Positions 4,546-58,207 of a stretch of 64,000 bases of DNA are shown one piece after another. The position numbers and the translations under genes were made by a program. The stretch spans positions 123,814,001 through 123,878,000 of the forward strand of contig OZ024741.1 of NCBI GenBank assembly GCA_964016885.1. The letters run 5' to 3'. The first letter of the stretch is position 1. Each line of letters begins with the position of its first letter. The notes beneath the pieces were generated by a model, which was not told where the DNA came from, ran no database searches, and worked only from the letters and a program-made list of their open reading frames with translations. The stretch comes from Eledone cirrhosa. Lineage: Eukaryota.

Positions 4546-4835
4546 ACATCTGCAAGTTCTGCCTACGGAATTCAAATCAAGACAGTGCTCCACATGAGGC
4601 TATAGTGGACAACACTTAGCAAAGCAAACTCTTTAACCACATATCAATGCGTTCATCAATGAAGATACATATATGTATATATGGACCTTTTTTTTCTCCT
4701 TTATAAACCTGTCTATAATTTGTAATCCTGAAGAAGCGCTCTAGCCCGACACGTCGAAGTGTCTTTCCTCTTTCCAATATATAAGCGTGAAACTAATAAG
4801 AATTTTCGTACCTCTATTGTGTCCTTGAACTATAT

Positions 4836-5908
4836 ATAAACGGAATAACGAAACCAAATTTCATTTTTCAATCTTAGTACGGCTGTTAATTAAATATAAG
4901 TATGTATACGTACATACATATATGTATACAGACGTACAGTAGTATGTATATATATATATACATACATGCACACATATATATATATGTACGTATGGATTCA
5001 CCGAACATTTATTATAATGGTCGGTGTGTTTGTAAACAAACATCGCGAATTAAGCCGTACAGTGTCTAGCAACCATCGTTCCTCATTTGTTCAACACTGA
5101 CACAGGAAGGCTGTACTAGTTTCAAGCTTATTAGCTATCGTCAGCAACGTATACCCTCCTGCCAGATGGTTGAACGTCTAAAAGTATATACTCTCCTTAT
5201 GCATATTAACGGATGTGCAGGAAGGTATACGTTGCTCACAATAGCTAATAAGCTTGAAACTAGTACAGCGTTCCAGTGTCAGTTTTGAACAAATGAGCAA
5301 CGATCGTTGCGAGACACTGTACGGCTTAATTCGGGATGTTTATTTACAAACACACCGAGCATTATAATAAATGTTCGGTGAATCCATACGTACATATATA
5401 TATGTGTGCATGTATGTATATATATATACATACTACTGTACGTCTGTATGTACGTATACATACTTATATTTAAGTAACAGCCGTAGTAGGAGTGAGAAAT
5501 GAAATTTCGTTTCATTTATTCCGTTTATCGTTTTCAGTACCCCGGCCGATTAACTCACTCGATATGCAAATTAGGCTGCTCAGCCGTTACTATGCATAAG
5601 GAAAGTATATACTTTCAGACGTTCAACCATCTGGCAGGAAGGTATACGTTGCTGACGATAGCTAATAAGGTTGAAACTAGTACATCGTTCCTGTGTCAGT
5701 GTTGAACAAAAAGTTGACGTTGTTGCCTAAACACTGTACAGCGTAATTCGGGCTGTTTGTTTGTTTACAAAAGAACAAACCGAGCATTACAATAAATGTT
5801 CGGTAAACCGATACGTGCATATATATATGTGTGCATGTATGTATATATATACCTACTACTGTACGTCTGTATACATATATGTATGTACGTATACATACAT
5901 ACTTATAT
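4836..5908. mobile_element. Hammerhead-containing ~418-bp repeat (retrozyme-like): ~0.9 unit on minus joined to ~1.6 units on plus
   Basis: 4836-~5160 is an imperfect inverted repeat of ~5217-5528. GCAGGAAGGTATAC recurs at ~5217 and ~5635. Both ends lie in TA-rich tracts. Confidence 0.8.
5637..5692 (+). ncRNA. Type I hammerhead ribozyme (418-bp family); further copies at ~5105-5160 (-) and ~5220-5275 (+, degenerate core)
   Basis: CGTTG-CTGACGA-TAGCTAATAAG(G/C)TT-GAAAC-TA-GTA-CA(G/T)CG gives the core, stem II AGC/GCT, palindromic stem III ACTAGT and stem I CGTTG/CAGCG. Confidence 0.75.
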
Positions 5909-9329: not shown

Positions 9330-9736
9330 AGTAATGGAAAAAGATGAGTATTGACGTACATGTACGTCAATACTCATCTTTTTCCATTTCTCCGAGGGTT
9401 CTTAACCCCAACTATCAGGCAAAATGATTTCTTTAATTTCTTTAGTCAAAATACGGCGACAGCTTACATTTCTAATAATTTCAAACCCACTCGCTGTTTC
9501 GAAAATATTCTTACTTGATATATATATATATGTATATATGCTAAATGATTTCTATAATTTCTTTAGTCAAAATACGGCGATATACCTACATACTTTGCTC
9601 CTATTTTCATGGGGATATTCTTATTTTTATATTGTATGTGTATATATATTTATATATATATACATATATGTGTATAACTTTATAACTCCATATATAAATA
9701 GTTGAGCTCTTTTTCTTGTCCATTATCCATATCACA

Positions 9737-12171
9737 ATGGAAAAACAATACTTGGGAACTTCTTTAAAGAATATACCATTACCTTCTAAGGATGATTTCT
9801 GACTTCTTATGATACAAAAAACCAACCAATTTATCAGAAGAGTCAGATGGAGGGCCTACCACTTCGATAAAAAAACAAAATATACTGATAGGAAATATTT
9901 GTATGATTTCACTACATATACAAATCCACCACACAACTCCTTACTTGAAAACTTTGAGAAAGACCTTTTTAATTTAATCAAACACCTCAAATTTAAGAGG
10001 TATACATCTAATTTTCAAAAGGATCTTCATTCTACCCTATTGAACGTAAAAAAATAAAAAAAAATCCATATCCACTCGGACAAAACTGGAAATCTTTATC
10101 ACATGGATATTGAAAATTACAATGTGTTCATATATAAAGAACTCAGAAAAAAATTATAGAAAAACAAACAATGAGTCACTTACCAACATCAACAACAAAA
10201 CACACAGCATAGTGAATAGACTTAATATTGAAGATAGAACTGAACCTTCGGCATTGAAAAGACCACACTTCAACCTGAAAGATCATAAATCTATCTTTAA
10301 CTCTAATCCTTCTATAAGGCTTATATGCCCTTCCAAATCTGATATTGGAATAATTAGTAAAAATATGTTAGATAGAGTCATCCTACAACTAAGAAAATAT
10401 GTTAATTTACCACTCTGGGAAAACACATCCCCGGGTAATTAACTGGTTTAATAATATTAGAAATAAATCCTCTGCTTCATTTCTACAATTTGATATAGAT
10501 AATTATTATTCTTCTATATCACCTATACACCTGAACAAAGCCTTGATATTTGCTAAAAATAGATCTAACTTAACTTTGGATGACATTAATATTATTACAC
10601 ATGCTAGACTAACACTATTGGAATTTCAGAATGAACCAGAAACACATATATTCGATATTACTATGGGCTCAAGCGATTCTGCCCAAATTACTGATCCTCT
10701 TTCTTCTGTTTTACATAAATGCTTCCTTTCCCCACCTTAAAGGTGGTTTATATCGTGACGACTGTCTTCTTCTTTCCAATAACCTTAGCCTCTCAGAGAT
10801 AGAAAAAAATAAAAAGCTTATTAGAACTTTCCTTAAAGACTATTATAGTCTAGATATTACATTTGAAAACACAAGTAAAGTAGTTAATTTCCTAGATATA
10901 ACATTAGACTTATCTACGGGTATCTACCAACCTTACCATAAACCCAACCAAAATTTACACTACATACACTCACAATCTAATCACCCTAAATCTATCCTTA
11001 AAAACCTTGCATATAATATATCACTTAGAATTTCTAACCTTTCGTCTAACCAAGTTGTATTTGATAAAAATGCGACCTTTTATAATGAAGCTCTAGCTAG
11101 AAGTGGCCACAAAAATAGATTAGTGTATATACCTTCTACCAATAACACTACAAACATACAACCTAATATTACCAACAAACACCAAATGAAACATACACAC
11201 CTAAATGCCACTCACAATATACTGCAAAACACCAACAGAAAACCAAATTTCTCTAACTCTTCTAATATACAGTATAGTAACTCTCAAAAAACTACTCATC
11301 CTACAACTCTAATAAATGTTAATAATAAAACTCCTAATAAACAAGCTAAAAGACCTAAATCAATAAATCTAACTAAAAATGTGTGTGGTGAGGTCATTAA
11401 CAATAATTCTCTTAATAAACATCAGGATGCATCCTATAAAAACAATAAACAACATCGAAACCGTAATAGACGAGTTACTTGGTATAATGCTCCATTTAAT
11501 TTACAAATTAAGGATAATATAGCTAAAAAATTCTTTAATATCCTAGAGAAAAACTTCCCGCCAAACCACAAATACCATCAAATCTTAAATAGATCAACGG
11601 TTAAATTCTCCTACTCAACAACCAAAAACATAAAACAAAATATAAGTGCCTATAATGCATATAAATGTAAAAAAAAACCATGAGTATACCACCAGTACAT
11701 CAAACTAACCATAATATCTCCTCAGATACAGGATTCACGAAAAGTTGTAACTGTAGAAACAAGGCAAACTGTCCATTAAAAGGAAATTGCCTTGTTAATA
11801 ACATAGTATATAAATGTAAAGTTAACACTAAGGACTCAATTTATTCATATATAGGAGCTACCTCTAACAAATTTAAGGTAATATTTAATACCCACAAACA
11901 TAGTTTTAAAAATGCCGCACTAGCTAATACAACATCTCTAGCTGAAATAATTAATAGTTTTAGAAAGCGGAATATAGATTATGACCTGACCTGGAGTGTG
12001 CTCAAAAGGGCCACCCCTTATCAAAATAGTAGATATGAATGTAGATTATGTTCCCTGGAACTTTTTGAAATAATGAAATCTAAGGATATCCTATTAAATA
12101 AGCGACAGGAATTAATAATATCGTGTAATCATAAACTGAGAAAAACCTTTAAATATTATAAACCTAATTAA
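9737..12171 (+). pseudogene. PLE reverse transcriptase + C-terminal GIY-YIG endonuclease, with stops and frameshifts
   Basis: SLKNIPLPS...FIRRVRWRA; LKDHK; SIRLICPSKSDIG; QFDIDNYYSSI; FDITMGS; GGLYRDD; VNFLDITLDL; linker CNCRNKANCPLKGNC (CxCx5C); IVYKC...YIGAT; CRLC. Confidence 0.9.
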
Positions 12172-12497
12172 TATACACTTTAGAAATTAATATATACAAT
12201 ATTTTTAATTTAGTTAACCTATAATTAATATTCTACTACTGATGAACTACATAACTTTGCTTTCCTTCTTACATCTATCATTTCCTAAAACTGATACCAT
12301 TAAGTAAACATATATAATGCTTTAACTTCAGGTTATGACTCTATGTTCCTTGAAATCTATATATATGTATTATTTCTCACTAATAAATTTAATTCCCCCC
12401 CCCCCAATAATTATATGTATATGTAAGTGTGTATGTGTGTATATATGTATATGTATGTATGTATATATGCATGTATATGTATATATATGTATATATA

Positions 12498-14117: not shown

Positions 14118-14345
<228 letters not shown>

Positions 14346-14474
14346 TCTACCTGGAGTTGCGCCCGATAGAGAGTACTAGCAATTGGAAAGACCAACGGAA
14401 ACATTGTTTCCTCGGTCCGATTTGACGAAAGTCGATCGACTGTCGATATATAGTATATATAAATATATATATAT

Positions 14475-17400
14475 ATAAAAACAAATAACGAAACGAAATT
14501 AAATTTCGTTTCGTTTGTAACTCACTTTTGTATGACTGACGCTTAAACAATTAAGTTAAAGATGTACATCCATATATGTATACTGAAATACTAGTATGCA
14601 TATGAATACACACACGTATACATATGTAGATGTACCAAGTTTTTTCACTGGTCACTTTACTGTGAGTGGCCAGCTATTCCGTATGTAAACACACAGACAA
14701 ACCGGTTTTTAGAGTCATACTGGTTTTTGAGGAAACACCTTTCCTCTATTCTCCAGAAAGCCAGACAAGGAATATTGAACTAGTTTCGTTGTTGTTACAA
14801 CTCATCAGCAATATTTACCTATCTTCCGGCCTCTCTAGAGAATCGTAAAAGCACATAGCGTTATATGCTTTTTCTATGAAAATTAGTAGTGGGCAGACTA
14901 ATTTGCATAGAGTGTGAGTAAGTACCGGTTCAACGGAGACGATAAAAACAAATAACGAAACGAAATTAAATTTCGTTTCGTTTGTAACTCACTTTTGTAT
15001 GACTGACGCTTAAACAATTAAGTTAAAGATGTACATCCATATATGTATACTGAAATACTAGTATGCATATGAATACACACACGTATACATATGTAGATGT
15101 ACCAAGTTTTTTCACTGGTCACTTTACTGTGAGTGGCCAGCTATTCCGTATGTAAACACACAGACAAACCGGTTTTTAGAGTCATACTGGTTTTTGAGGA
15201 AACACCTTTCCTCTATTCTCCAGAAAGCCAGACAAGGAATATTGAACTAGTTTCGTTGTTGTTACAACTCATCAGCAATATTTACCTATCTTCCGGCCTC
15301 TCTAGAGAATCGTAAAAGCACATAGCGTTATATGCTTTTTCTATGAAAATTAGTAGTGGGCAGACTAATTTGCATAGAGTGTGAGTAAGTACCGGTTCAA
15401 CGGAGACGATAAAAACAAATAACGAAACGAAATTAAATTTCGTTTCGTTTGTAACTCACTTTTGTATGACTGACGCTTAAACAATTAAGTTAAAGATGTA
15501 CATCCATATATGTATACTGAAATACTAGTATGCATATGAATACACACACGTATACATATGTAGATGTACCAAGTTTTTTCACTGGTCACTTTACTGTGAG
15601 TGGCCAGCTATTCCGTATGTAAACACACAGACAAACCGGTTTTTAGAGTCATACTGGTTTTTGAGGAAACACCTTTCCTCTATTCTCCAGAAAGCCAGAC
15701 AAGGAATATTGAACTAGTTTCGTTGTTGTTACAACTCATCAGCAATATTTACCTATCTTCCGGCCTCTCTAGAGAATCGTAAAAGCACATAGCGTTATAT
15801 GCTTTTTCTATGAAAATTAGTAGTGGGCAGACTAATTTGCATAGAGTGTGAGTAAGTACCGGTTCAACGGAGACGATAAAAACAAATAACGAAACGAAAT
15901 TAAATTTCGTTTCGTTTGTAACTCACTTTTGTATGACTGACGCTTAAACAATTAAGTTAAAGATGTACATCCATATATGTATACTGAAATACTAGTATGC
16001 ATATGAATACACACACGTATACATATGTAGATGTACCAAGTTTTTTCACTGGTCACTTTACTGTGAGTGGCCAGCTATTCCGTATGTAAACACACAGACA
16101 AACCGGTTTTTAGAGTCATACTGGTTTTTGAGGAAACACCTTTCCTCTATTCTCCAGAAAGCCAGACAAGGAATATTGAACTAGTTTCGTTGTTGTTACA
16201 ACTCATCAGCAATATTTACCTATCTTCCGGCCTCTCTAGAGAATCGTAAAAGCACATAGCGTTATATGCTTTTTCTATGAAAATTAGTAGTGGGCAGACT
16301 AATTTGCATAGAGTGTGAGTAAGTACCGGTTCAACGGAGACGATAAAAACAAATAACGAAACGAAATTAAATTTCGTTTCGTTTGTAACTCACTTTTGTA
16401 TGACTGACGCTTAAACAATTAAGTTAAAGATGTACATCCATATATGTATACTGAAATACTAGTATGCATATGAATACACACACGTATACATATGTAGATG
16501 TACCAAGTTTTTTCACTGGTCACTTTACTGTGAGTGGCCAGCTATTCCGTATGTAAACACACAGACAAACCGGTTTTTAGAGTCATACTGGTTTTTGAGG
16601 AAACACCTTTCCTCTATTCTCCAGAAAGCCAGACAAGGAATATTGAACTAGTTTCGTTGTTGTTACAACTCATCAGCAATATTTACCTATCTTCCGGCCT
16701 CTCTAGAGAATCGTAAAAGCACATAGCGTTATATGCTTTTTCTATGAAAATTAGTAGTGGGCAGACTAATTTGCATAGAGTGTGAGTAAGTACCGGTTCA
16801 ACGGAGACGATAAAAACAAATAACGAAACGAAATTAAATTTCGTTTCGTTTGTAACTCACTTTTGTATGACTGACGCTTAAACAATTAAGTTAAAGATGT
16901 ACATCCATATATGTATACTGAAATACTAGTATGCATATGAATACACACACGTATACATATGTAGATGTACCAAGTTTTTTCACTGGTCACTTTACTGTGA
17001 GTGGCCAGCTATTCCGTATGTAAACACACAGACAAACCGGTTTTTAGAGTCATACTGGTTTTTGAGGAAACACCTTTCCTCTATTCTCCAGAAAGCCAGA
17101 CAAGGAATATTGAACTAGTTTCGTTGTTGTTACAACTCATCAGCAATATTTACCTATCTTCCGGCCTCTCTAGAGAATCGTAAAAGCACATAGCGTTATA
17201 TGCTTTTTCTATGAAAATTAGTAGTGGGCAGACTAATTTGCATAGAGTGTGAGTAAGTACCGGTTCAACGGAGACGATAAAAACAAATAACGAAACGAAA
17301 TTAAATTTCGTTTCGTTTGTAACTCACTTTTGTATGACTGACGCTTAAACAATTAAGTTAAAGATGTACATCCATATATGTATACTGAAATACTAGTATG

Positions 17401-19231
17401 CATATGAATACACACACGTATACATATGTAGATGTACCAAGTTTTTTCACTGGTCACTTTACTGTGAGTGGCCAGCTATTCCGTATGTAAACACACAGAC
17501 AAACCGGTTTTTAGAGTCATACTGGTTTTTGAGGAAACACCTTTCCTCTATTCTCCAGAAAGCCAGACAAGGAATATTGAACTAGTTTCGTTGTTGTTAC
17601 AACTCATCAGCAATATTTACCTATCTTCCGGCCTCTCTAGAGAATCGTAAAAGCACATAGCGTTATATGCTTTTTCTATGAAAATTAGTAGTGGGCAGAC
17701 TAATTTGCATAGAGTGTGAGTAAGTACCGGTTCAACGGAGACGATAAAAACAAATAACGAAACGAAATTAAATTTCGTTTCGTTTGTAACTCACTTTTGT
17801 ATGACTGACGCTTAAACAATTAAGTTAAAGATGTACATCCATATATGTATACTGAAATACTAGTATGCATATGAATACACACACGTATACATATGTAGAT
17901 GTACCAAGTTTTTTCACTGGTCACTTTACTGTGAGTGGCCAGCTATTCCGTATGTAAACACACAGACAAACCGGTTTTTAGAGTCATACTGGTTTTTGAG
18001 GAAACACCTTTCCTCTATTCTCCAGAAAGCCAGACAAGGAATATTGAACTAGTTTCGTTGTTGTTACAACTCATCAGCAATATTTACCTATCTTCCGGCC
18101 TCTCTAGAGAATCGTAAAAGCACATAGCGTTATATGCTTTTTCTATGAAAATTAGTAGTGGGCAGACTAATTTGCATAGAGTGTGAGTAAGTACCGGTTC
18201 AACGGAGACGATAAAAACAAATAACGAAACGAAATTAAATTTCGTTTCGTTTGTAACTCACTTTTGTATGACTGACGCTTAAACAATTAAGTTAAAGATG
18301 TACATCCATATATGTATACTGAAATACTAGTATGCATATGAATACACACACGTATACATATGTAGATGTACCAAGTTTTTTCACTGGTCACTTTACTGTG
18401 AGTGGCCAGCTATTCCGTATGTAAACACACAGACAAACCGGTTTTTAGAGTCATACTGGTTTTTGAGGAAACACCTTTCCTCTATTCTCCAGAAAGCCAG
18501 ACAAGGAATATTGAACTAGTTTCGTTGTTGTTACAACTCATCAGCAATATTTACCTATCTTCCGGCCTCTCTAGAGAATCGTAAAAGCACATAGCGTTAT
18601 ATGCTTTTTCTATGAAAATTAGTAGTGGGCAGACTAATTTGCATAGAGTGTGAGTAAGTACCGGTTCAACGGAGACGATAAAAACAAATAACGAAACGAA
18701 ATTAAATTTCGTTTCGTTTGTAACTCACTTTTGTATGACTGACGCTTAAACAATTAAGTTAAAGATGTACATCCATATATGTATACTGAAATACTAGTAT
18801 GCATATGAATACACACACGTATACATATGTAGATGTACCAAGTTTTTTCACTGGTCACTTTACTGTGAGTGGCCAGCTATTCCGTATGTAAACACACAGA
18901 CAAACCGGTTTTTAGAGTCATACTGGTTTTTGAGGAAACACCTTTCCTCTATTCTCCAGAAAGCCAGACAAGGAATATTGAACTAGTTTCGTTGTTGTTA
19001 CAACTCATCAGCAATATTTACCTATCTTCCGGCCTCTCTAGAGAATCGTAAAAGCACATAGCGTTATATGCTTTTTCTATGAAAATTAGTAGTGGGCAGA
19101 CTAATTTGCATAGAGTGTGAGTAAGTACCGGTTCAACGGAGACGATAAAAACAAATAACGAAACGAAATTAAATTTCGTTTCGTTTGTAACTCACTTTTG
19201 TATGACTGACGCTTAAACAATTAAGTTAAAG
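14475..19231 (-). repeat. 467-bp tandem array, left arm (~10.2 units; hammerhead on minus)
   Basis: Exact 467-bp period (identical 60-aa ORFs at 14666, 15133 ... 18869). Units appear identical by eye. Confidence 0.97.
14768..14820 (-). ncRNA. Type I hammerhead ribozyme, first of 10 copies in the left arm (every 467 bp)
   Basis: RNA reads AAUAUUG-CUGAUGA-GUUG(uaacaa)CAAC-GAAAC-UA-GUU-CAAUAUU: intact core, 7-bp stem I, 4-bp stem II, palindromic stem III. Confidence 0.9.
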
Positions 19232-22200
19232 CATATAACGCTATGTGCTTTTACGATTCTCTAGAGAGGCCGGAAGATAGGTAAATATTGCTGATGAGTT
19301 GTAACAACAACGAAACTAGTTCAATATTCCTTGTCTGGCTTTCTGGAGAATAGAGGAAAGGTGTTTCCTCAAAAACCAGTATGACTCTAAAAACCGGTTT
19401 GTCTGTGTGTTTACATACGGAATAGCTGGCCACTCACAGTAAAGTGACCAGTGAAAAAACTTGGTACATCTACATATGTATACGTGTGTGTATTCATATG
19501 CATACTAGTATTTCAGTATACATATATGGATGTACATCTTTAACTTAATTGTTTAAGCGTCAGTCATACAAAAGTGAGTTACAAACGAAACGAAATTTAA
19601 TTTCGTTTCGTTATTTTTTTTTATCGTCTCCGTTGAACCGGTACTTACTCACACTCTATGCAAATTAGTCTGCCCACTACTAATTTTCATAGAAAAAGCA
19701 TATAACGCTATGTGCTTTTACGATTCTCTAGAGAGGCCGGAAGATAGGTAAATATTGCTGATGAGTTGTAACAACAACGAAACTAGTTCAATATTCCTTG
19801 TCTGGCTTTCAGGAGAATAGAGGAAAGGTGTTTCCTCAAAAACCAGTATGACTCTAAAAACCGGTTTGTCTGTGTGTTTACATACGGAATAGCTGGCCAC
19901 TCACAGTAAAGTGACCAGTGAAAAAACTTGGTACATCTACATATGTATACGTGTGTGTATTCATATGCATACTAGTATTTCAGTATACATATATGGATGT
20001 ACATCTTTAACTTAATTGTTTAAGCGTCAGTCATACAAAAGTGAGTTACAAACGAAACGAAATTTAATTTCGTTTCGTTATTTGTTTTTATCGTCTCCGT
20101 TGAACCGGTACTTACTCACACTCTATGCAAATTAGTCTGCCCACTACTAATTTTCATAGAAAAAGCATATAACGCTATGTGCTTTTACGATTCTCTAGAG
20201 AGGCCGGAAGATAGGTAAATATTGCTGATGAGTTGTAACAACAACGAAACTAGTTCAATATTCCTTGTCTGGCTTTCTGGAGAATAGAGGAAAGGTGTTT
20301 CCTCAAAAACCAGTATGACTCTAAAAACCGGTTTGTCTGTGTGTTTACATACGGAATAGCTGGCCACTCACAGTAAAGTGACCAGTGAAAAAACTTGGTA
20401 CATCTACATATGTATACGTGTGTGTATTCATATGCATACTAGTATTTCAGTATACATATATGGATGTACATCTTTAACTTAATTGTTTAAGCGTCAGTCA
20501 TACAAAAGTGAGTTACAAACGAAACGAAATTTAATTTCGTTTCGTTATTTGTTTTTATCGTCTCCGTTGAACCGGTACTTACTCACACTCTATGCAAATT
20601 AGTCTGCCCACTACTAATTTTCATAGAAAAAGCATATAACGCTATGTGCTTTTACGATTCTCTAGAGAGGCCGGAAGATAGGTAAATATTGCTGATGAGT
20701 TGTAACAACAACGAAACTAGTTCAATATTCCTTGTCTGGCTTTCTGGAGAATAGAGGAAAGGTGTTTCCTCAAAAACCAGTATGACTCTAAAAACCGGTT
20801 TGTCTGTGTGTTTACATACGGAATAGCTGGCCACTCACAGTAAAGTGACCAGTGAAAAAACTTGGTACATCTACATATGTATACGTGTGTGTATTCATAT
20901 GCATACTAGTATTTCAGTATACATATATGGATGTACATCTTTAACTTAATTGTTTAAGCGTCAGTCATACAAAAGTGAGTTACAAACGAAACGAAATTTA
21001 ATTTCGTTTCGTTATTTGTTTTTATCGTCTCCGTTGAACCGGTACTTACTCACACTCTATGCAAATTAGTCTGCCCACTACTAATTTTCATAGAAAAAGC
21101 ATATAACGCTATGTGCTTTTACGATTCTCTAGAGAGGCCGGAAGATAGGTAAATATTGCTGATGAGTTGTAACAACAACGAAACTAGTTCAATATTCCTT
21201 GTCTGGCTTTCTGGAGAATAGAGGAAAGGTGTTTCCTCAAAAACCAGTATGACTCTAAAAACCGGTTTGTCTGTGTGTTTACATACGGAATAGCTGGCCA
21301 CTCACAGTAAAGTGACCAGTGAAAAAACTTGGTACATCTACATATGTATACGTGTGTGTATTCATATGCATACTAGTATTTCAGTATACATATATGGATG
21401 TACATCTTTAACTTAATTGTTTAAGCGTCAGTCATACAAAAGTGAGTTACAAACGAAACGAAATTTAATTTCGTTTCGTTATTTGTTTTTATCGTCTCCG
21501 TTGAACCGGTACTTACTCACACTCTATGCAAATTAGTCTGCCCACTACTAATTTTCATAGAAAAAGCATATAACGCTATGTGCTTTTACGATTCTCTAGA
21601 GAGGCCGGAAGATAGGTAAATATTGCTGATGAGTTGTAACAACAACGAAACTAGTTCAATATTCCTTGTCTGGCTTTCTGGAGAATAGAGGAAAGGTGTT
21701 TCCTCAAAAACCAGTATGACTCTAAAAACCGGTTTGTCTGTGTGTTTACATACGGAATAGCTGGCCACTCACAGTAAAGTGACCAGTGAAAAAACTTGGT
21801 ACATCTACATATGTATACGTGTGTGTATTCATATGCATACTAGTATTTCAGTATACATATATGGATGTACATCTTTAACTTAATTGTTTAAGCGTCAGTC
21901 ATACAAAAGTGAGTTACAAACGAAACGAAATTTAATTTCGTTTCGTTATTTGTTTTTATCGTCTCCGTTGAACCGGTACTTACTCACACTCTATGCAAAT
22001 TAGTCTGCCCACTACTAATTTTCATAGAAAAAGCATATAACGCTATGTGCTTTTACGATTCTCTAGAGAGGCCGGAAGATAGGTAAATATTGCTGATGAG
22101 TTGTAACAACAACGAAACTAGTTCAATATTCCTTGTCTGGCTTTCTGGAGAATAGAGGAAAGGTGTTTCCTCAAAAACCAGTATGACTCTAAAAACCGGT

Positions 22201-22824
22201 TTGTCTGTGTGTTTACATACGGAATAGCTGGCCACTCACAGTAAAGTGACCAGTGAAAAAACTTGGTACATCTACATATGTATACGTGTGTGTATTCATA
22301 TGCATACTAGTATTTCAGTATACATATATGGATGTACATCTTTAACTTAATTGTTTAAGCGTCAGTCATACAAAAGTGAGTTACAAACGAAACGAAATTT
22401 AATTTCGTTTCGTTATTTGTTTTTATCGTCTCCGTTGAACCGGTACTTACTCACACTCTATGCAAATTAGTCTGCCCACTACTAATTTTCATAGAAAAAG
22501 CATATAACGCTATGTGCTTTTACGATTCTCTAGAGAGGCCGGAAGATAGGTAAATATTGCTGATGAGTTGTAACAACAACGAAACTAGTTCAATATTCCT
22601 TGTCTGGCTTTCTGGAGAATAGAGGAAAGGTGTTTCCTCAAAAACCAGTATGACTCTAAAAACCGGTTTGTCTGTGTGTTTACATACGGAATAGCTGGCC
22701 ACTCACAGTAAAGTGACCAGTGAAAAAACTTGGTACATCTACATATGTATACGTGTGTGTATTCATATGCATACTAGTATTTCAGTATACATATATGGAT
22801 GTACATCTTTAACTTAATTGTTTA
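19228..22824 (+). repeat. 467-bp tandem array, right arm, inverted (~7.7 units; hammerhead on plus)
   Basis: Reverse complement of the left-arm unit with a 467-bp period. Only two variants seen (19617 G>T, 19811 T>A). Ends in (TA)n. Confidence 0.97.
19284..19328 (+). ncRNA. Type I hammerhead ribozyme, first of 8 copies in the right arm
   Basis: CTGATGA at 19291, GAAAC at 19312, predicted cleavage after 19321. Confidence 0.9.
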
Positions 22825-22835
22825 TATATATATAA

Positions 22836-22961
<126 letters not shown>

Positions 22962-22968
22962 TAAATAT

Positions 22969-23390
<422 letters not shown>

Positions 23391-24304: not shown

Positions 24305-26679
24305 TGGCGACTTACGTAGTAAATCGTATCATCGTGATCTGCGCAAAGGTTTGTTGTTTTCAGTTATTTAAAATTGCCATTCATGGAAATTTTTTTATTG
24401 TTAACTCTATATACGTGCACATACATTGTTATCTGAAAAGGACACCCAAAAGGATTGGGGCCTTATGCCCAAAATTTAAACTTTTATGATTATCAAAAAT
24501 TTCTTTGAAAAAATCATGGCTGGTTCACCTCTGCACCAAGCAACTGAGAGCCTTCCTCACAAACTAACACCTCACACCGAAACCACCATTGTAAATATTA
24601 CTACGTTTGCCAACACTAAAACTATAAGCAGTAGAAATATTTTAAATTTGTCTCAGGCAGACATTCATTTCCCGCCATTACCAATGAGTGCAGCAGGTGT
24701 TAAATCCGCCACCACCACCACCACCACCGCGACACCCCCCCCCCCCCCTCCATCACCACCGCGACAACAGAAACAAAAGAAAAAAATAAATTAACTCGTG
24801 ATATCGAAATGAATTCAAACAAAATGAACTCTTCCACACCGAAAACCAGTGACGCCACCACCACCACAACTGAAACTAAAATTAATAATAACAAAAATAA
24901 CGATAACAACAACAGCAACAATGACATTAAGAAAACCACCCTGAGTAGCAAAACAGTGCGAAGCATTTCAGGTAACTCAGGAGGAATTAGAAGAAGCCAA
25001 CAAAATGGTAAAGAAAGGTTGGTATAGGGTCAGCCGCAGCCCCCACCTAATAAAATGGAGCATCGGCGCCTATGCACCGAGTCTTATCGAACAATTAATG
25101 TAAAATCGCGCCGAGGGGAGCGGGCATCCGAGTCCCAAATCCAAAAAGCTTTGGAACATGTGTTGGCAAAAAACCCCCACATCAGACGTGGGCAGAAGTA
25201 TGGAACCGTGGACGTGTTCTTTGAACACCAGAGGAGGCTAGAGAACACTCCATGGCCCCATTAAGAAGTGACGACTTCACACTCGTCCCAAGCTATTGTG
25301 GCCAGAGACTCGTAAAGATTAGGGTCACCCACGTTCCACCGGCCATCGAAATTCCCTGGATAATAGCTGCCGTCCTCGCCGGCATCGAAGCCAACACCAA
25401 AATAATCGAAATAGCGAAAGAAAAGCAGGAGAACAGGTCCGGATCTGGGATGGAGCTCCTGATCCAAGCGGACCAAAAAAGCATGGAGGAGATCCCAGAG
25501 GTAATAGACCTCACTGACGGCAGTCACCTCACCGTAATTGTCGAGGGCAGAAGGCCTAGGTGTGGCGTTTGTGGTGAAGGAACCCATCTAAGGGCTTTCT
25601 GCCCTCAGGCTAAAAGGTTGAGGCCACCTCTCTTACCCACCCCAGTGACTCAACCATCAACACCACCATCAGCAGAGATGGCAGCAACAACTGTAGCAGC
25701 AACAACAGAAGCAACTGTAACAGCAACAACCCCAGCAACAGTAGCAAAACCAACACCACCACCACCCAACGCTTCAGAACTAGCACCAGCGCCTACACCA
25801 TCCACCACACTAAAACCAAAACTAACGCCTGTGGAGGATTTTCCACTCCCCGGCCTATCACAACTGGAGACAGATTGTGACGACGAGGAGTGAGAAACGG
25901 TATCAGGAAAAAAGAAAAAAAGAAACCTAAAGAGAAAAAATGATCTTCCTTCCCACCCCAAACACCAACACCATCACCATCATTAACCCCAACACCACCA
26001 TCACCTACACCACAAAAGTCACCAAAAAGCGAAACAGAAACAAGCCACAAACAAAACAAAACAACAAAAACGATACACACTACACAGCATGAAATTTGAA
26101 CAACAACCAATTATTACACTACATCCAACACAACACCAGCATAACAGAAACAGACTACACAACAACCCAAAAGTTCACACCACCTCCACACATACAAATC
26201 ACTCGCATCACACAGAAAACGTACACGACACTAAAACAAAAATTGCCCAAAGACGTCGGAGACTTCCGACAAATACTCTCCAGGAGGATTTATAAGGACA
26301 TCCTTACGGAGGAGGCGACGAGCAGTGAAAAGGATGGACAAACCATCCTTCCTCTACGAGAAGTAAGGTAAGTGGTCTTTCCCATCTTTTCCACTCCATT
26401 TCAACATGACCTCACTCAGAATAGGCAGCATAAATGCGAGTGGCTTGGGGTCGATGTGTACGCATCTCCCAGCCGTCCGGGATCGGGGGGAGGAGATGCT
26501 GTGCTTTTTCGGAGAGGTTTGGATCTCGCCATACGGGCCATTTCCTGGACCCAGAAGTTAAGTTGGTGGTGCTAAACGTGAGCAGCGGAGACGGGCAAGC
26601 TTTCAGGCTAGTGGCCGTCTATGCCCCGACAGGAGCAGGGCGGCCTGATTTTCTTCCGGCGTCTGGAGACCTTTCTTTG
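24305..26679 (+). mobile_element. Second Tx1/L1-type LINE, 5' portion (ORF1 and truncated APE), decayed
   Basis: ORF1 YCGQRLVKIRV...VIVEGRRPRCGVCGEGTHLRAFC (CCHC) is homologous to element 1. ORF2 begins MTSLRIGSINASGLG (~26406) and includes FRLVAVYAP. The 5' end abuts (ATT)n. Confidence 0.8.
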
Positions 26680-27950
26680 AACGTTATCATTAATAATAAA
26701 AAACAAATCCTCCATTCCCATTATGCCAAACCCTTGACTTCCAAACATCTGATCCACCGAAACTCGGCTGTTTCAGACCACACCAAAGTCAACATGCTGA
26801 TTGCGGATTTGGTACGGGTGATGAGAAACGTGTCCCGCATGTGCAACCCAGAAGAACTAGAGAGACACATACAACACTTCATCCACCGTATGCAGTTCTC
26901 TGGCTACAATCAGAGAGATAAAATCAGAGTGTATAGAGGAGCCAGAACCAAATGGGAATAAATGGTAAATAATGACATAAATGGGACCTGCCCCTTGTAT
27001 AGGAGCAAATTTTGGAATAGAATAGAAAGAACTAGGAACAAGGCTAATAGAATAAACTCATGGTATGATAGCAATAAATACCAGAGTGTAATGTTCATCG
27101 ATACAACCCCTAGAGGTGAATTAGCTTACAAATTTAGATGGGCCCTAGATAAACATAACTCAATATTAAGATAGTAGAAAGACCAGGTACCTCCGTAAAA
27201 ACACTTATTAGCAAGACATACCCTTTTCAAAGACCCTCATGTATAGATAAGAAATGTATAACCTGTAAAATAAGCACCCATATTAACTGTAAAACTAGAA
27301 ATGTAGTGTATAGCATAAGATGTACTGAAGGACAATGTAGAGACAAAAATATAGTGTACATAGGTGAGACAGCTCGTAGTGTAGGGGAACAGATAAATGA
27401 ACACTGGCGAGACCTTCAAGATAGTAAAGAATCATCTGTACTCTACCAACATGCTAAAATAGAACACAAGGGTAAATTAGAGAACATAGAAATAAAAATA
27501 GAATCTACACACAGAAAAGACGCAATGTTTAGACAAATCACAGAGGCAATAAACATAAATGAACTCCAACCAAAATTAAATAGAAAATATGAGTGGAACA
27601 GCAACATCACAACTTACAATTAAGGACAAAATGAAAACACACACACACATAGAACAAACAATCAACCAGTAACATGTAAATAAACAAATAAATAAATGAA
27701 CATAAACACACACAGACACCCGGATGTGGCGCATGCGCAGACTGAGCACACAACACACACACAGAAACAAAATGGCGTAGGACAGAACAAAGGAGAGGCA
27801 CAAAAACAAAGAAAGGAATCCCCAGTCACTGAAGATGTCACAGAGCGTGTGACGAAAGAACTATGACAATATATAAACAACTATCTGGTTGTGGAACCAA
27901 CCAACCAACCAGAAATTTATAAATTCCTAAATTTATTATAAATTTATTAT
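26680..27950 (+). mobile_element. PLE 3' fragment (RT thumb + GIY-YIG + pLTR hammerhead), Nematis/Neptune-like
   Basis: HYAKPLTSKHLIHRNSA, RMQFSGY, VVYSIRC...YIGETARS...EH...LYQH...RQITEAINI...LNRKYEW. Hammerhead core CTGAAGA-TGTCAC..GTGAC-GAAA at ~27829-27858. Confidence 0.8.
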
Positions 27951-29989: not shown

Positions 29990-31753
29990 TATCTATAGTC
30001 ACCACCCGATTTACGTTGGGAACCCCTCCACCGCACCATCCGCCGCCTCTTCCGACGCCTCCAGTCCGACCCCTCCACCTCCCACATCTTCCCAACCCCA
30101 CTACTCCCCTCCTTCAAACTAGCATTCAATCTCCGCACCCTCCTCGTCCACAGCTCCCTACCCCCCAACCCACGCTCTGTTACCCCCACCCCGGTTCCTT
30201 TCCCTGTTCTAGGCCCCGCTGCAACACCTGTCCCCACATCACCAACACCTTCCAGGGTCCAAACGGCCAATCTCTCTGTCCGGCATGCCTTCCGCTGCAC
30301 CTCCTCCAACCTAGTCTACGGACTTCGCTGCATAGCGTGCAGCGCGACTTATGTCGGACAGACGGGACGTCGCCTGCCGGACCGATTCACTGAGCACCTC
30401 CGGGATATTCGTCTCGGTGGTAGTTCCCCCATTGCCCGCCACTTTGGTGGCCCTGGACATTCCGCACGCCATCTCACAGTCTGTGGCCTACTCCAATGCC
30501 ACGGAACACCCGCCAATCGCCTTAGAGTCAAACAATGAACTATCTTCATCTTACAGACCCACACTCCCCCCGGCCTGAACTCCCCACCCTTATTCCTTTA
30601 GCTTCGACCGCCCCCCTCCCCCCACACTTATCCCCCACTAACACCACTAACACACCTCTCCTTTTCACCGCCCACCCCACAACTAACAATACTAACACCT
30701 CCACTCCACCCCTCATCCGACCACCCTTCCCCAACTAACATACTAACATCCCTCCCTTCTTCTCCCCCTCCCCCTCCTTATCACACGCACACACCCACCG
30801 GCACATATATACACGCGCTCGCACTAAACACCACCACTAACCCTCACTCCCACACCTCCATCCCACCACCCCGCAACTAACCTCAGTAACACCCCCTGAG
30901 CCCAAGCACACGAACACACGCACCCACTTACACCACCCACCCCACACGCAAGTAACATCACTAAACCCCCCCAACCCCACGCACACGTACCCACACACTC
31001 TCGTACACCACCAACTCTACACACCCTACCACCACTAACCCCCACTCACACCTGCATTCAACCCTTTCCCCACCTCCCGTATACTAACACCCACTAACAA
31101 CCCCTTCATCAAACTACACACACACCAGTACACCTCACTCCCTCCATAGAACTACACACACCCTTCTCTCCCTGCTCCACCCACACCCTCGCTCCACACT
31201 CACTCATCCCACTAACACCTCTACTAATACACACACACACCCTCCTCACTCCAACTTTCACACCTACCCATCCTCGCCCCTTTACCATTCCACCTGACTG
31301 CTGCTATGCCCTCTGACCACCTCCCAGCACAAACAGACACACAGCACTCCCACCGCTTGACCACTTCCTGTTGCGCGCGCACCCCACATCTCTCCTCTTC
31401 CGACCATCTCTTCATGGAATACTCGTATGTGGAACTTGACCACCACGGAATCTACTAAACATCATAGGAATTTACCAACATTTCAACCATCCTCTTACGG
31501 AATCACCTATATAACTCACCCAGACACACACCCCAAAAATTTTTTTCTCCCACACGCCACCTACACCCACAGCACGCTTAAACCCCACACACACGTGCTT
31601 TCCACCAAATATTTACACCCTCAGCCTCCTGATTCCTCTCCCACCACCCCTCTATCCACACACGCACAGACACTCCGACCTACAACCCCCCCCCACACAC
31701 ACACACACCTCTTCCTGAACATGCAACCCCGTTCTTCCCCCAACCCTTACTTT

Positions 31754-31790
<37 letters not shown>

Positions 31791-32209
31791 ACACCTACAC
31801 ACACACACCACCTTCAGCCCTCCCCACCCGGACACCCCGTCTCCCTCTCCCCACTCCACCCGCCACCACACCTACACACCCCACACCCTTCCACCACCTG
31901 TTTTACCCCCTTTTTAATTTCAGTTTATTTTGATCATGCTTTTATATTTAATTTTATTTCAATCCTTGTATTTTGATCATGCTTTATTTTTATTTTTATT
32001 TTTAATTTCATTTGCACCGTTTCCTTTCGCTATATGTCTCTCCACCACTCCCCTACACACCCTTTGAACTCTGTTCCCACACACTTCTCACCTGAGGAAG
32101 GGCTTATGCCCGAAACGTCGTTCCCCACCACCACCCCACTCTCCAGAGCGTGAAATTAATAAACATTCGTTGTACTGCCTCTCTGTTTTGTTCCTGTTCA
32201 AATTTTTCC

Positions 32210-54550: not shown

Positions 54551-54631
<81 letters not shown>

Positions 54632-55277
54632 AAGATGAATATAAGATGAAAGTGCTTTTTTTAAAAAAAAGGAATTTATTAGGTATTGACATATGTTTCT
54701 GTAACAGACGGAATACCTATGTATCGCTGCTTGCGTAATCATATAATGTTAGCAAGTATTCGATAGCAAATGTATAATCAGTTGTCACTTCTTCAGAGAT
54801 TTTGGATAAATTGGATAAAATCAGAAAAATTGAAGTATTTATATTAGTGGTAATAGAGGAAGAAAAGAGGGGATAGTATATGACAGATGGTAATTCAATT
54901 TACTGCTAAACAAGTATATAAAGGGTTTCTAATGAGAATACAATGAGTAAATGGTTTATTTTATCTAAATAAGAATTTTTGGGAGTGCCTATTTTAATCT
55001 ATACTTGACCAATTGAACAATGGACAGGGCTGGTCATTTGGTGTAGTAGTATTAATTATAAAGTGTCAATTGAGGAAGGTGGAGCTTTCGAATTCTACTG
55101 AATAACATCAATGCTAGTAGCCAGCTGGTATATGCATTAGGGAATTGAATTAAGAAATCTCATTTTATCTATAGCAGTTTATATTAAATGGTAAATAACA
55201 GAAGAGTTGATAGAATTAAGACTAATAGAGAATGTTAATATGTATTTTGACAATCAAACGGAGATGGAGACAGGCGT

Positions 55278-57358
55278 TCAATCCTGGTAGTATTTGTAAT
55301 ATGAAAATGTAGATTTTAAGCGATGGTTACAGTATAACGATCGCTCTATTCTGTTATTTAATAAAATGTTTTTGGATTTCATAATACAAAATAATTCCAT
55401 ATTACATAATTTACAAAATTCTTGTCCGTGGGATATGGAGGGGCATTCACTATTATATCCCATTTTAGGTTAAATTGTTGGTTATTTTCACGCAGCTGCC
55501 AAGCTTTGTCTGCGAGTGTTGTTACATAACGCTGGTTTTCATGTTTTATCGAGTAACGATGTCTATAAAGGCGTGATTTGAAGGAGGTGGCTGTAGATCC
55601 CACATAGTACCACTTCTGTCTATCCGATTCGATAGTACATTTGTATATGATGTTGCGTTCAAGACACTGATTGTTCAACGGACACATTCCTGGTTGGACA
55701 CAGTTACAGTTATAATTTTGCGTTGTTGTATTGGCATCGATGGGTTGATGAGGTTGTTTAGGTAGGACAGGATATTGTTTGTTGTTTTGTGATGTTATAG
55801 CTAATGTTTTACGTGTATTGTTATGTGTTGGAAGGCGTTTATACAACCGTTTTACGTTAAGCTTTTTTATATGTTGTTCAATATTAGGGGCGGTTGAATA
55901 TGAAAGTCGAATAGTGTTAGGGTTTAAGATTTTATTATATTTATGTGATGTTGGAAAGTGTTTTTTAACTAATCGAAAGAATTGTGAGGGTAGATTGGTT
56001 TTAATAGAGTTGTTATAGACCGGGTTGTACCAAATATACTCTTTACATCGCCTTCTGTTTGGTGGTGTGCGACTATTATTGTGTCTATTACGGTAGTGTA
56101 TGTATGGTGGTGATTCTGTGCTATTTCTACCCCTATGGGATTTATTTTGGGTGTTTTGGTGATCTTCGACTATATACTCTATATTATCTAGGTGTCCGGC
56201 TTTCCTAAGTGCATCATCATAATATTCGGCATGTTCTTTGAAGGTTTGTTGGTTGGACGACAGGCGGGAGATTCTAAGAGAAACATTTCTAGGGATGGAT
56301 TTAATTATAGAGAGTGGATGGTTAGAACTCGTATTTACATATTTAAGGTTCTCATTTAGTTTATGGAACGGTTTAATCATTTCTGTATTGAGATTCAAAG
56401 TAACATCAAGGAAATTGACCTATTTGAGGTTATATTCAAATGTAATATTTAATCCTAGTTCCTTAAAAAGCTTTCTGATATTTGTACGCATCCTTTCTAA
56501 ATTCTGGTTATTCATATGCTTAACTAATAGGAGCGCATCGTCACGGTAGATTCCACCGTGGAGATCCTTGAATTTTCCTTGTAGTCTGTGGGTGATATAA
56601 ATTCCCACAAGATCTGTTACTTCCGCCGAATCATTGGAACCCATAGTAATATCAAAATTAGAAGGTCTATCTTTGCGAACCCAGTAGCTATCATCAAATT
56701 TAACAATAGTTTTCCTCGCTTCCATAATAATTTTAATTTCAGCATCCGTAAGGTCGGAATTAGCCTTGGCGAACGAAAGAGCTTCATGTAGAATATCAGG
56801 TGAAATTGAGGAATAATATTCATCAATATCAAACTGAATAAATTTTGATTTTTTCTTATCAGTAATGTTATTAAACCATCTTATTGCTTCATGAGTGTTA
56901 CCCCATAGTTTAATTTCTACTTTAGCCTTAACTTGGGGGATAATTCTGTCTAGTATATATTTGCTAATTTTGCCTATATCAGATTTAGAGGGGCATATAA
57001 GTCTAATTTTAGGGTCACTATCGAAGTTTACCTTGTGGTCCTTCAGGTTGAAGGATGGTGTAGCTGGTGTTAAGGGTTGCGTTCTATCGTCAATGCAAAG
57101 TTGTTTAACAATTTCACATGCCGAGTTGTTGATGTTTTTAGGTGTAGCTTCATTAGTTTTCTTGTATTTTTTATGCAATTCCTTACGGATGAAGTTATTG
57201 TAAGTGTCCACATACATGGTATATACGTTTGATGTTTTGTCTGCTGCTCTAACAATAATTCCATTGGCGTTTTTTAGATTATTGAGCAGTGCCGTGATGT
57301 CATTCTGTAGTTTATTGTTCTTCCGTTTTGTAAATTTGATCTCCATGATCATATCCAT
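55278..57358 (-). pseudogene. PLE RT + GIY-YIG endonuclease, few frameshifts
   Basis: ADKTSN, LKDHK, KIRLICPSKSDIG, QFDIDEYYSSI, FDITMGS, GGIYRDD, CNCVQPGMCPLNNQC (CxCx5C), IIYKC..YYVGST, LKW, CKLC. Confidence 0.9.
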
Positions 57359-57899
57359 TAGGTCTTGTTGTAACCATCGCTTAAAATCTACATTTTCATA
57401 TTACAAATACTACCAGGATTGAACGCCTGTCTCCATCTCCGTTTGATTGTCAAAATACATATTAACATTCTCTATTAGTCTTAATTCTATCAACTCTTCT
57501 GTTATTTACCATTTAATATAAACTGCTATAGATAAAATGAGATTTCTTAATTCAATTCCCTAATGCATATACCAGCTGGCTACTAGCATTGATGTTATTC
57601 AGTAGAATTCGAAAGCTCCACCTTCCTCAATTGACACTTTATAATTAATACTACTACACCAAATGACCAGCCCTGTCCATTGTTCAATTGGTCAAGTATA
57701 GATTAAAATAGGCACTCCCAAAAATTCTTATTTAGATAAAATAAACCATTTACTCATTGTATTCTCATTAGAAACCCTTTATATACTTGTTTAGCAGTAA
57801 ATTGAATTACCATCTGTCATATACTATCCCCTCTTTTCTTCCTCTATTACCACTAATATAAATACTTCAATTTTTCTGATTTTATCCAATTTATCCAAA

Positions 57900-58015
57900 A
57901 TCTCTGAAGAAGTGACAACTGATTATACATTTGCTATCGAATACTTGCTAACATTATATGATTACGCAAGCAGCGATACATAGGTATTCCGTCTGTTACA
58001 GAAACATATGTCAAT
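57900..58015 (+). ncRNA. pLTR hammerhead-like motif with long stem II (mirror copy ~54685-54800 on minus)
   Basis: CTGAAGA-AGTGACA...TGTTACA-GAAAC-ATAT-GTC. Stem I pairing is weak. Confidence 0.5.
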
Positions 58016-58175
58016 ACCTAATAAATTCCTTTTTTTTAAAAAAAGCACTTTCATTTTATATTCATCTTTTCTATATTTTCTCCGGAATATAATTTATACT
58101 CGTTGAGCAAACCTACACGTACGCTGTTCATCTCTAACGTAACGATATATTATCACTACATTATTGATAACCTGA

Positions 58176-58207
<32 letters not shown>

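Follow-up and report, generated by a model that had tools for sequence, protein, structure and literature searches.

Non-LTR (non-long-terminal-repeat) retrozymes were defined by Cervera and de la Pena (2020; PMC7229834), who showed their circular RNAs and proposed that tandem complementary DNA (cDNA) is copied from these circles, possibly with the help of Penelope-like elements (PLEs); the same model is put forward again in PMC7761336. Li et al. (2026; 10.64898/2026.07.22.740005) linked retrozymes to pseudo-long terminal repeats (pLTRs) through co-occurrence and pLTR phylogeny, and suggested that the arrays grow locally. PLEs leave an inverted, 5'-truncated copy and a one-sided tail at microsatellite targets (PMC3846280, PMC8557442), and a purified PLE protein, predicted to be dimeric, cuts AT-rich DNA on both strands and extends each of them, starting at two internal RNA sites that flank the tail (PMC11167929). 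In this work we analysed a 64,000-nt stretch of the Eledone cirrhosa genome (assembly GCA_964016885.1, contig OZ024741.1, positions 123,814,001 to 123,878,000; hereafter the window), in which we read a head-to-head array at 14475-22824 as a single insertion of a hammerhead retrozyme without coding capacity. The locus bears on two open questions: by what route animal retrozymes are mobilized and turned into tandem arrays, and what causes the inverted copy and the one-sided tail of PLE insertions.

The array consists of 18 units of a 467-nt non-coding hammerhead repeat, arranged in two arms (positions within the unit are denoted U, with U1 at window 19228). The left arm, arm A, occupies 14475..19231 on the minus strand (4,757 nt, 10.2 units); in RNA sense it runs from a 5' stop at U311 to an RNA 3' end at U397, located at window 14475, and is 100% identical to the unit. 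The right arm, arm B, lies on the plus strand at 19228..22824 (3,597 nt, 7.7 units), extends from a 5' stop at U1 to an RNA 3' end at U328, and departs from the unit at two positions, 19617 and 19811. The arms meet at 19228..19231 in a 4-nt microhomology, AAAG, common to both. The left end carries a 69-nt tail (U329-397; 14475..14543, minus strand) that spans the interval between both priming sites and recurs with the same offset at other loci. Both outer ends adjoin (TA)n, on the left at 14446..14474 and on the right at 22825..23070, and a single haplotype runs across arms A and B. An initial annotation of this DNA had placed the array, its arms, the tail and the junction; all of these coordinates were re-derived exactly, and the AAAG microhomology and the left tail were both found again.

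By its sequence features, the unit is a non-LTR retrozyme; each 467-nt copy contains a single type I hammerhead. It forms short tandem arrays with a 467-nt period, has a GC content of ~36% (non-LTR retrozymes lie below 45-50%), is dispersed over many loci, and the array contains no open reading frame (ORF) of at least 150 aa; in particular, no ORF combining reverse transcriptase (RT) and GIY-YIG domains, as expected of an autonomous PLE, lies inside the array. The Rfam family HH9 matched 18 of 18 units, 10 in the left arm on the minus strand and 8 in the right arm on the plus strand, with scores of 37.1-37.7 bits (E ~1e-6), under the Rfam gathering score of 52; the outermost left-arm match is at 14755..14826 on the minus strand. 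The hammerhead at U57-101 (19284..19328, plus strand) has a 7-bp stem I, a 5-bp stem II and a palindromic 2-bp stem III, and its predicted cut falls between 19321 and 19322. The short palindromic stem III suggests that cleavage would proceed in a dimeric form. Core positions are invariant in 138-139 of 139 loci, the stem II pair U72-U83 shows a compensatory swap (T-A in 106 loci, A-T in 33), and the cut triplet is GUU in 111 loci and GUC in 28. The orientation of the hammerhead fixes the RNA sense and thus identifies both outer ends of the array as RNA 3' ends. Rfam matches to sraA and microRNAs were far under their thresholds and were taken as chance.

The layout of the window array recurs throughout the genome (designated G000; 3.0 Gb, a single assembly). 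The exact U397 end followed by TATA occurs 2,062 times and the exact U328 end followed by TATA 103 times, while the reversed control patterns of both gave no match across the genome. We fetched 161 loci, most of them chosen on one end: the U328 list supplied its first 60, the U397 list 26, a variant end pattern 50 and a similarity search 14 (the window being the fifteenth), with follow-ups in addition. Among the 60 loci chosen on the U328 end, one of them gapped, an inverted U397 end was detected in 48 by script and in 4 more by eye. Conversely, of 70 loci chosen on the U397 end, the script detected an inverted end at U318-329 in 51 and inspection by eye in another 4; six other loci were excluded as the pattern match was internal or ambiguous. 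The presence of a second end that had not been selected for supports two-ended, PLE-type insertion.

Clean head-to-head insertions with two arms, of 0.1-51 units each, were found at 104 of the 161 loci, and many apparent single-arm loci carry second arms of just 7-25 nt. The second RNA 3' end is U328 in 75 of these 104 loci (60 loci having been selected on U328), U323 in 19 and another position in 10. Most loci are flanked by (TA)n. The arms overlap at the junction by 2-6 nt in 40 loci, by 0-1 nt in 21 and by more in 12, and 31 junctions contain insertions, often templated; among the 61 junctions with an overlap of 0-6 nt, 40 have at least 2 nt, compared with 18% by chance. Junction phases are scattered over the unit. 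Arm lengths correlate, with a rho of 0.50 over the 104 loci and of 0.40 over the 89 that were end-selected, and similarity to the young unit tends to rise with array length (rho 0.32). The expectation, raised in the initial annotation, that genomic copies would end at the same two unit positions with variable arm lengths was thus borne out at more than 100 loci, as was its reading of the footprint as PLE-type; the recurring elements are two fixed 3' ends, a tail offset, a (TA)n target, variable arms, a microhomology junction and a target duplication.

Target duplications could be delimited at six loci with both ends and informative flanks, as ranges that vary with the way in which homology to the element ends is attributed: 7-15 bp at L047, 12-16 bp at L134, 12-14 bp at L170, 11-12 bp at L171, 9-12 bp at L179 and 8-17 bp at L199. 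A length of 12 bp is compatible with all six. L178 showed no target duplication, and loci L172, L173 and L175 were too repetitive for a call. Since the duplication encloses both arms, it marks them as one insertion into a staggered cut.

The recurrent layout matches the published PLE footprint, and priming on both target strands by an enzyme acting in trans is therefore well supported; we consider it very probable that a PLE-type enzyme made these insertions by double priming. A PLE protein with RT and GIY-YIG domains would nick both strands of the (TA)n target. Arm A would be primed from the top-strand nick and begin at U397, arm B from the bottom-strand nick and begin at U323-328. Reverse transcription would thus start from both nicks, at two fixed RNA sites 69 nt apart, and the nick geometry at a staggered cut would yield head-to-head arms with their 3' ends outward. 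The RT would probably lap a single 467-nt RNA circle ~10 times for arm A and ~8 times for arm B, after which the two cDNAs would be joined at the 4-nt microhomology, presumably through host microhomology-mediated repair. Folding predicts a 13-bp hairpin within the tail (U357-385; 14487..14515, minus strand), which is also conserved in a sister family 67-71% identical to the unit and is a candidate protein-binding site.

Elements that could encode such machinery are present in the genome. The window itself contains a broken PLE at 54624-58180, with RT-like and GIY-YIG-like frames on the minus strand and an in-frame stop near 56420; this relic has a 708-nt perfect inverted arm and a tail of ~104 nt, and lies between (TA)n runs. 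At L250, two inverted ORF-bearing PLE copies are offset by a tail of ~56 nt. The relic, an autonomous-type element, and L250 show the same footprint as the array. Open frames of 938, 636 and 477 aa in this genome match RVT_1 and GIY-YIG; within the window, Pfam recovered one of seven PLE fragments, and a structure-database search using one PLE frame returned nothing useful. Window 9670-12440 harbours a second, frameshifted PLE relic (frames 10613-11683 and 11671-12171) that adjoins (TA)n and has a 95% identical copy in L156. Further GIY-YIG-like frames and minimal hammerhead-like motifs occur at 27159-27900, 29999-32130, 28947, 35129, 44710 and 52512, and the window is dense in PLE debris.

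The locus shares several features with endonuclease-bearing PLEs as described in PMC3846280 (Arkhipova 2013), PMC8557442 and PMC11167929 (Frangieh 2024): an inverted copy that is truncated at its 5' end, a tail on one side only, microsatellite or AT-rich targets and two internal RT starts. Unlike them, it has no ORF, and each of its arms is a multi-unit array. The tail of 69 nt compares with 30-40 nt described for PLEs and with the ~56 and ~104 nt of the two PLEs of this genome, and the 12-bp fit of the target duplication with 8-10 bp in Adineta PLEs. Non-autonomous Chlamys PLEs such as MRC1 (Craig 2021, PMC8557442) are likewise non-coding PLE parasites, often in multi-copy head-to-tail insertions; in contrast to the present family, their 3' end resembles that of an autonomous partner and their clade is described as devoid of canonical hammerheads, whereas the present unit has a hammerhead and the PLEs examined included no partner for it. 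With respect to metazoan non-LTR retrozymes, the unit length of 467 nt is slightly over the 150-450 bp given in PMC7229834 and inside the 51-972 bp given by Li et al. (10.64898/2026.07.22.740005), and the sections of both papers available to us describe no head-to-head arms, two fixed 3' ends, tail or editing signature. A full-text literature search, whose coverage mostly excludes subscription journals, returned no report of a head-to-head, two-site, tail-offset footprint on retrozyme arrays or of the editing signature, and the accessible parts of PMC11722881, PMC9940879 and 10.1101/2022.05.23.493040 contain nothing further on either. Retrozymes and the circle model are already published, and the mechanistic evidence presented here is apparently unreported.

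Two further aspects of the proposed mechanism are whether the array was born in one step and which RNA served as its template. We think it probable that all 18 units of the window array came from one event. Among 36 arrays of at least 6 units, 27 have no variant common to a subset of units, and L057, with 38 units, has one singleton. As to the template, most arms run through the ribozyme cut (86 of 104 A arms and 89 of 104 B arms). A linear monomer cut by the ribozyme, which would cause run-off at U95, was considered and rejected: 7 A arms and 8 B arms of the 104 loci stop within 10 nt of that point, against 4.7 expected, which is not significant.

The polarity of mutations, scored in RNA sense at 420 positions with a known ancestral state, bears on the same question. 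Differences fixed in every copy at a locus comprise 21 A>G and 3 T>C changes (p 1e-4; 19 and 3 when present in both arms), whereas unit-private differences comprise 13 A>G and 23 T>C; the A>G differences are often clustered. The bias is array-wide rather than per unit, which argues that the changes arose at a one-unit stage and were then multiplied; editing of a multi-unit linear RNA should yield the opposite pattern, so that the array-wide A>G excess favours a one-unit circle. Adenosine-to-inosine (A-to-I) editing is a likely source of the bias. C>T is not above G>A (6 vs 7), making selection for G-U pairs alone a poor fit. At L076, a 50-mer is nearly private, with three of its four matches at that locus. 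A diagnostic 46-mer of the window array has 28 matches, 18 of them within the window, and none of the other places holds an array of the same haplotype. We therefore lean towards a monomer RNA circle as the template. Separately, U118-121 (window 19345-19348) shows recurrent non-CpG G>A changes at several loci, a possible hot spot of RT error or lesions.

Taken as a whole, the reading that we favour with reasonable but not strong confidence is a PLE-type, double-primed insertion of a retrozyme, probably by lapping one circle. In its most extended form, to which we incline only slightly, an RT dimer bound to the tail hairpin of a single A-to-I-edited circle would be primed at a 12-bp staggered cut and carry out two rolling-circle reverse transcriptions in one event, producing up to ~38 units (18 kb); the same double priming would be the general cause of the inverted copy and tail of PLEs, and thousands of loci in this genome would record it. 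If true, satellite DNA can arise through an RNA circle, with a satellite-like array born in one step, and target-primed reverse transcription can write 5-14 kb per arm. The family offers thousands of insertion records; their start sites are fixed, a duplication length can be derived from them and their mutations carry an RNA-strand signature, which makes the formation of retrozyme arrays and the origin of the inverted copy and tail of PLEs countable in genomes. The in vitro PLE assay that already exists could test both, given a defined substrate of 467 nt.

A number of observations weigh against this reading. No PLE with the tail or hammerhead of the unit was found among the 3' ends of PLEs at the fetched loci and at 50 GIY-YIG loci, out of 10,597 first-look candidates. 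The sequence context expected of ADAR was not significant (paired positions 16/21 vs 87/136, p 0.23), selection from A-U to G-U pairs could add to the A>G bias, and a cluster of A>G changes at L049, at first a candidate for a private editing event, proved to be inherited, with 69 matches in 7 places. Four arrays, L192, L193, L203 (L203:2764-7805) and L044, are mosaics of two haplotypes, the haplotype or subfamily changing within the array; for these, a single circle is insufficient without RT template switching between RNAs or later recombination. A single assembly may also miss a polymorphic source array. Arms are usually short, with medians of 1.5 and 1.2 units, and just 11 of 89 end-selected loci reach 10 units. 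Nine of the 36 long arrays contain subset-shared variants, that is, later expansion or mosaic templates, and L104 (1.6+51.5 units) and L113 (0.7+30.7 units) show nested, block-like variant patterns typical of post-insertion local expansion; since such expansion is seen at other family loci, the window array may also have expanded after a short insertion. Some of the singletons may be errors of sequencing (CpG excess p 0.07). Finally, contigs of four public runs, heavily fragmented over the repeat, do not span the window junction, which is no evidence of its absence.

Several of these points feed the best-surviving alternative, in which a short double-primed PLE-type insertion of the usual size, one to two units per arm, was followed by local growth through unequal exchange or slippage. 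Li et al. (10.64898/2026.07.22.740005) propose this model for retrozyme arrays, and block duplications occur at L104, L113 and L082. Two of these, the 51.5-unit arm of L104/L165/L166 (G000:C5 near 39.86-39.89 Mb) and the 30.7-unit arm of L113/L202 (G000:C1 near 5.74-5.75 Mb), contain higher-order variant blocks and appear to be retrozyme insertions turning into conventional satellites. Yet these two, the clearest cases of local growth, are one-armed and have nested variants, whereas the window array, L033/34, L035-37, L049, L057, L061, L095 and L197/98 are long in both arms and have no subset-shared variant. Local growth is also at odds with the correlation of arm lengths and with the finding that longer arrays tend to lie nearer to the young unit rather than to be older. 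We consider it unlikely, though the most serious of the alternatives, for the window array.

Less probable still, in our estimate, is a concatemer template without any circle: one long linear read-through transcript of a source array, left uncut, would have served for both arms in a single event. With a stem III of 2 bp, cleavage may be slow; unprocessed RNA is the main in vitro substrate in PMC11167929; the mosaic arrays, and the 11 of 104 loci at which the two arms end no more than 2 nt apart in phase (1.1 expected), agree with one linear template common to both arms; and haplotypes of entire arrays are passed on from one locus to another. Against such a concatemer stand the A>G changes, fixed array-wide and not unit-private, the lack of a source array with the window haplotype in the assembly, and the related loci L076 and L194, each with extra A>G changes in every copy. 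In addition, a 29-unit arm would require a 13.7-kb RNA to survive 29 hammerheads. Where the initial annotation had left a 467-nt circle and a long concatemer side by side, the array-wide A>G changes and the missing same-haplotype source array favour the former and disfavour the latter.

The inversion itself might be ascribed to fold-back self-priming of one cDNA (Arkhipova 2013) or to L1-style twin priming on one linear RNA, both of which we regard as very improbable. Same-phase junctions, within 5 nt, occur at 14 of 104 loci, several of them at palindromes, and could be the most that fold-back explains; their enrichment may come from joining at palindromes or from one break in the template that affected both arms. 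The remaining 90 junctions join different phases, and arm B is longer than arm A at 42 of the 104 loci. In L1 twin priming, two target-primed cDNAs are joined head-to-head by microhomology; the internal site used by the second primer varies, and the first cDNA stops close to it. Here, by contrast, the second site is fixed and the stop of the first arm is unrelated to it. A arms stop near the B priming site at 5 loci within 10 nt (4.7 expected), 9 within 20 nt (9.1) and 19 within 30 nt (13.6, p 0.08). A weak signature of twin priming in a first set (15 of 68 loci within 30 nt, p 0.03) was not significant in the cleaner 104 loci, and the twin-priming analogy drawn in the initial annotation is not supported. 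The same annotation had stressed that the 18 nt at 19214..19231 (minus strand) equal the last 18 nt of arm B (22807-22824), which could speak for twin priming; the identity is real, but the weight placed on it is unsupported, as A stops are not enriched near U328 and the overlap is probably coincidental.

A chimera of the assembly or of the library, for which one might invoke the unspanned window junction, is hardly credible as the source of the inversion given the fixed outer ends, the target duplications and the locus-specific haplotypes common to both arms at many loci, together with other head-to-head unit junctions in contigs of public runs X1, X3 and X14 (X1 and X3, which come from a single sample, have two of the junctions in common). 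Public-run contigs also contain the U397-(TA)n end. Words of the unit occur in public runs X4-X16, under about a dozen other organism codes, for which relatives, diet or cross-contamination are candidate causes, and run X4 contains a 497-nt contig (unit + 30), as from a circle or a tandem array, which was not used as evidence.

Other elements lie in the window. An older sister retrozyme, 67-71% like the unit, occupies window 4834-5870; it is head-to-head, has a similar tail hairpin and carries hammerhead cores at 5144 (minus strand) and 5652 (plus strand). This type of hammerhead is abundant in the genome, where hammerheads with the stem III type of the unit number 39,488, sister families included. 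Immediately left of the array, 14232-14445 contains a short element that we take to resemble a tRNA-derived short interspersed element; ARAGORN found no tRNA in the window. Frames resembling ORF1 (zinc knuckle) of long interspersed elements, with endonuclease fragments, were recognized by eye from translations at 168-2796 and 25225-26961.

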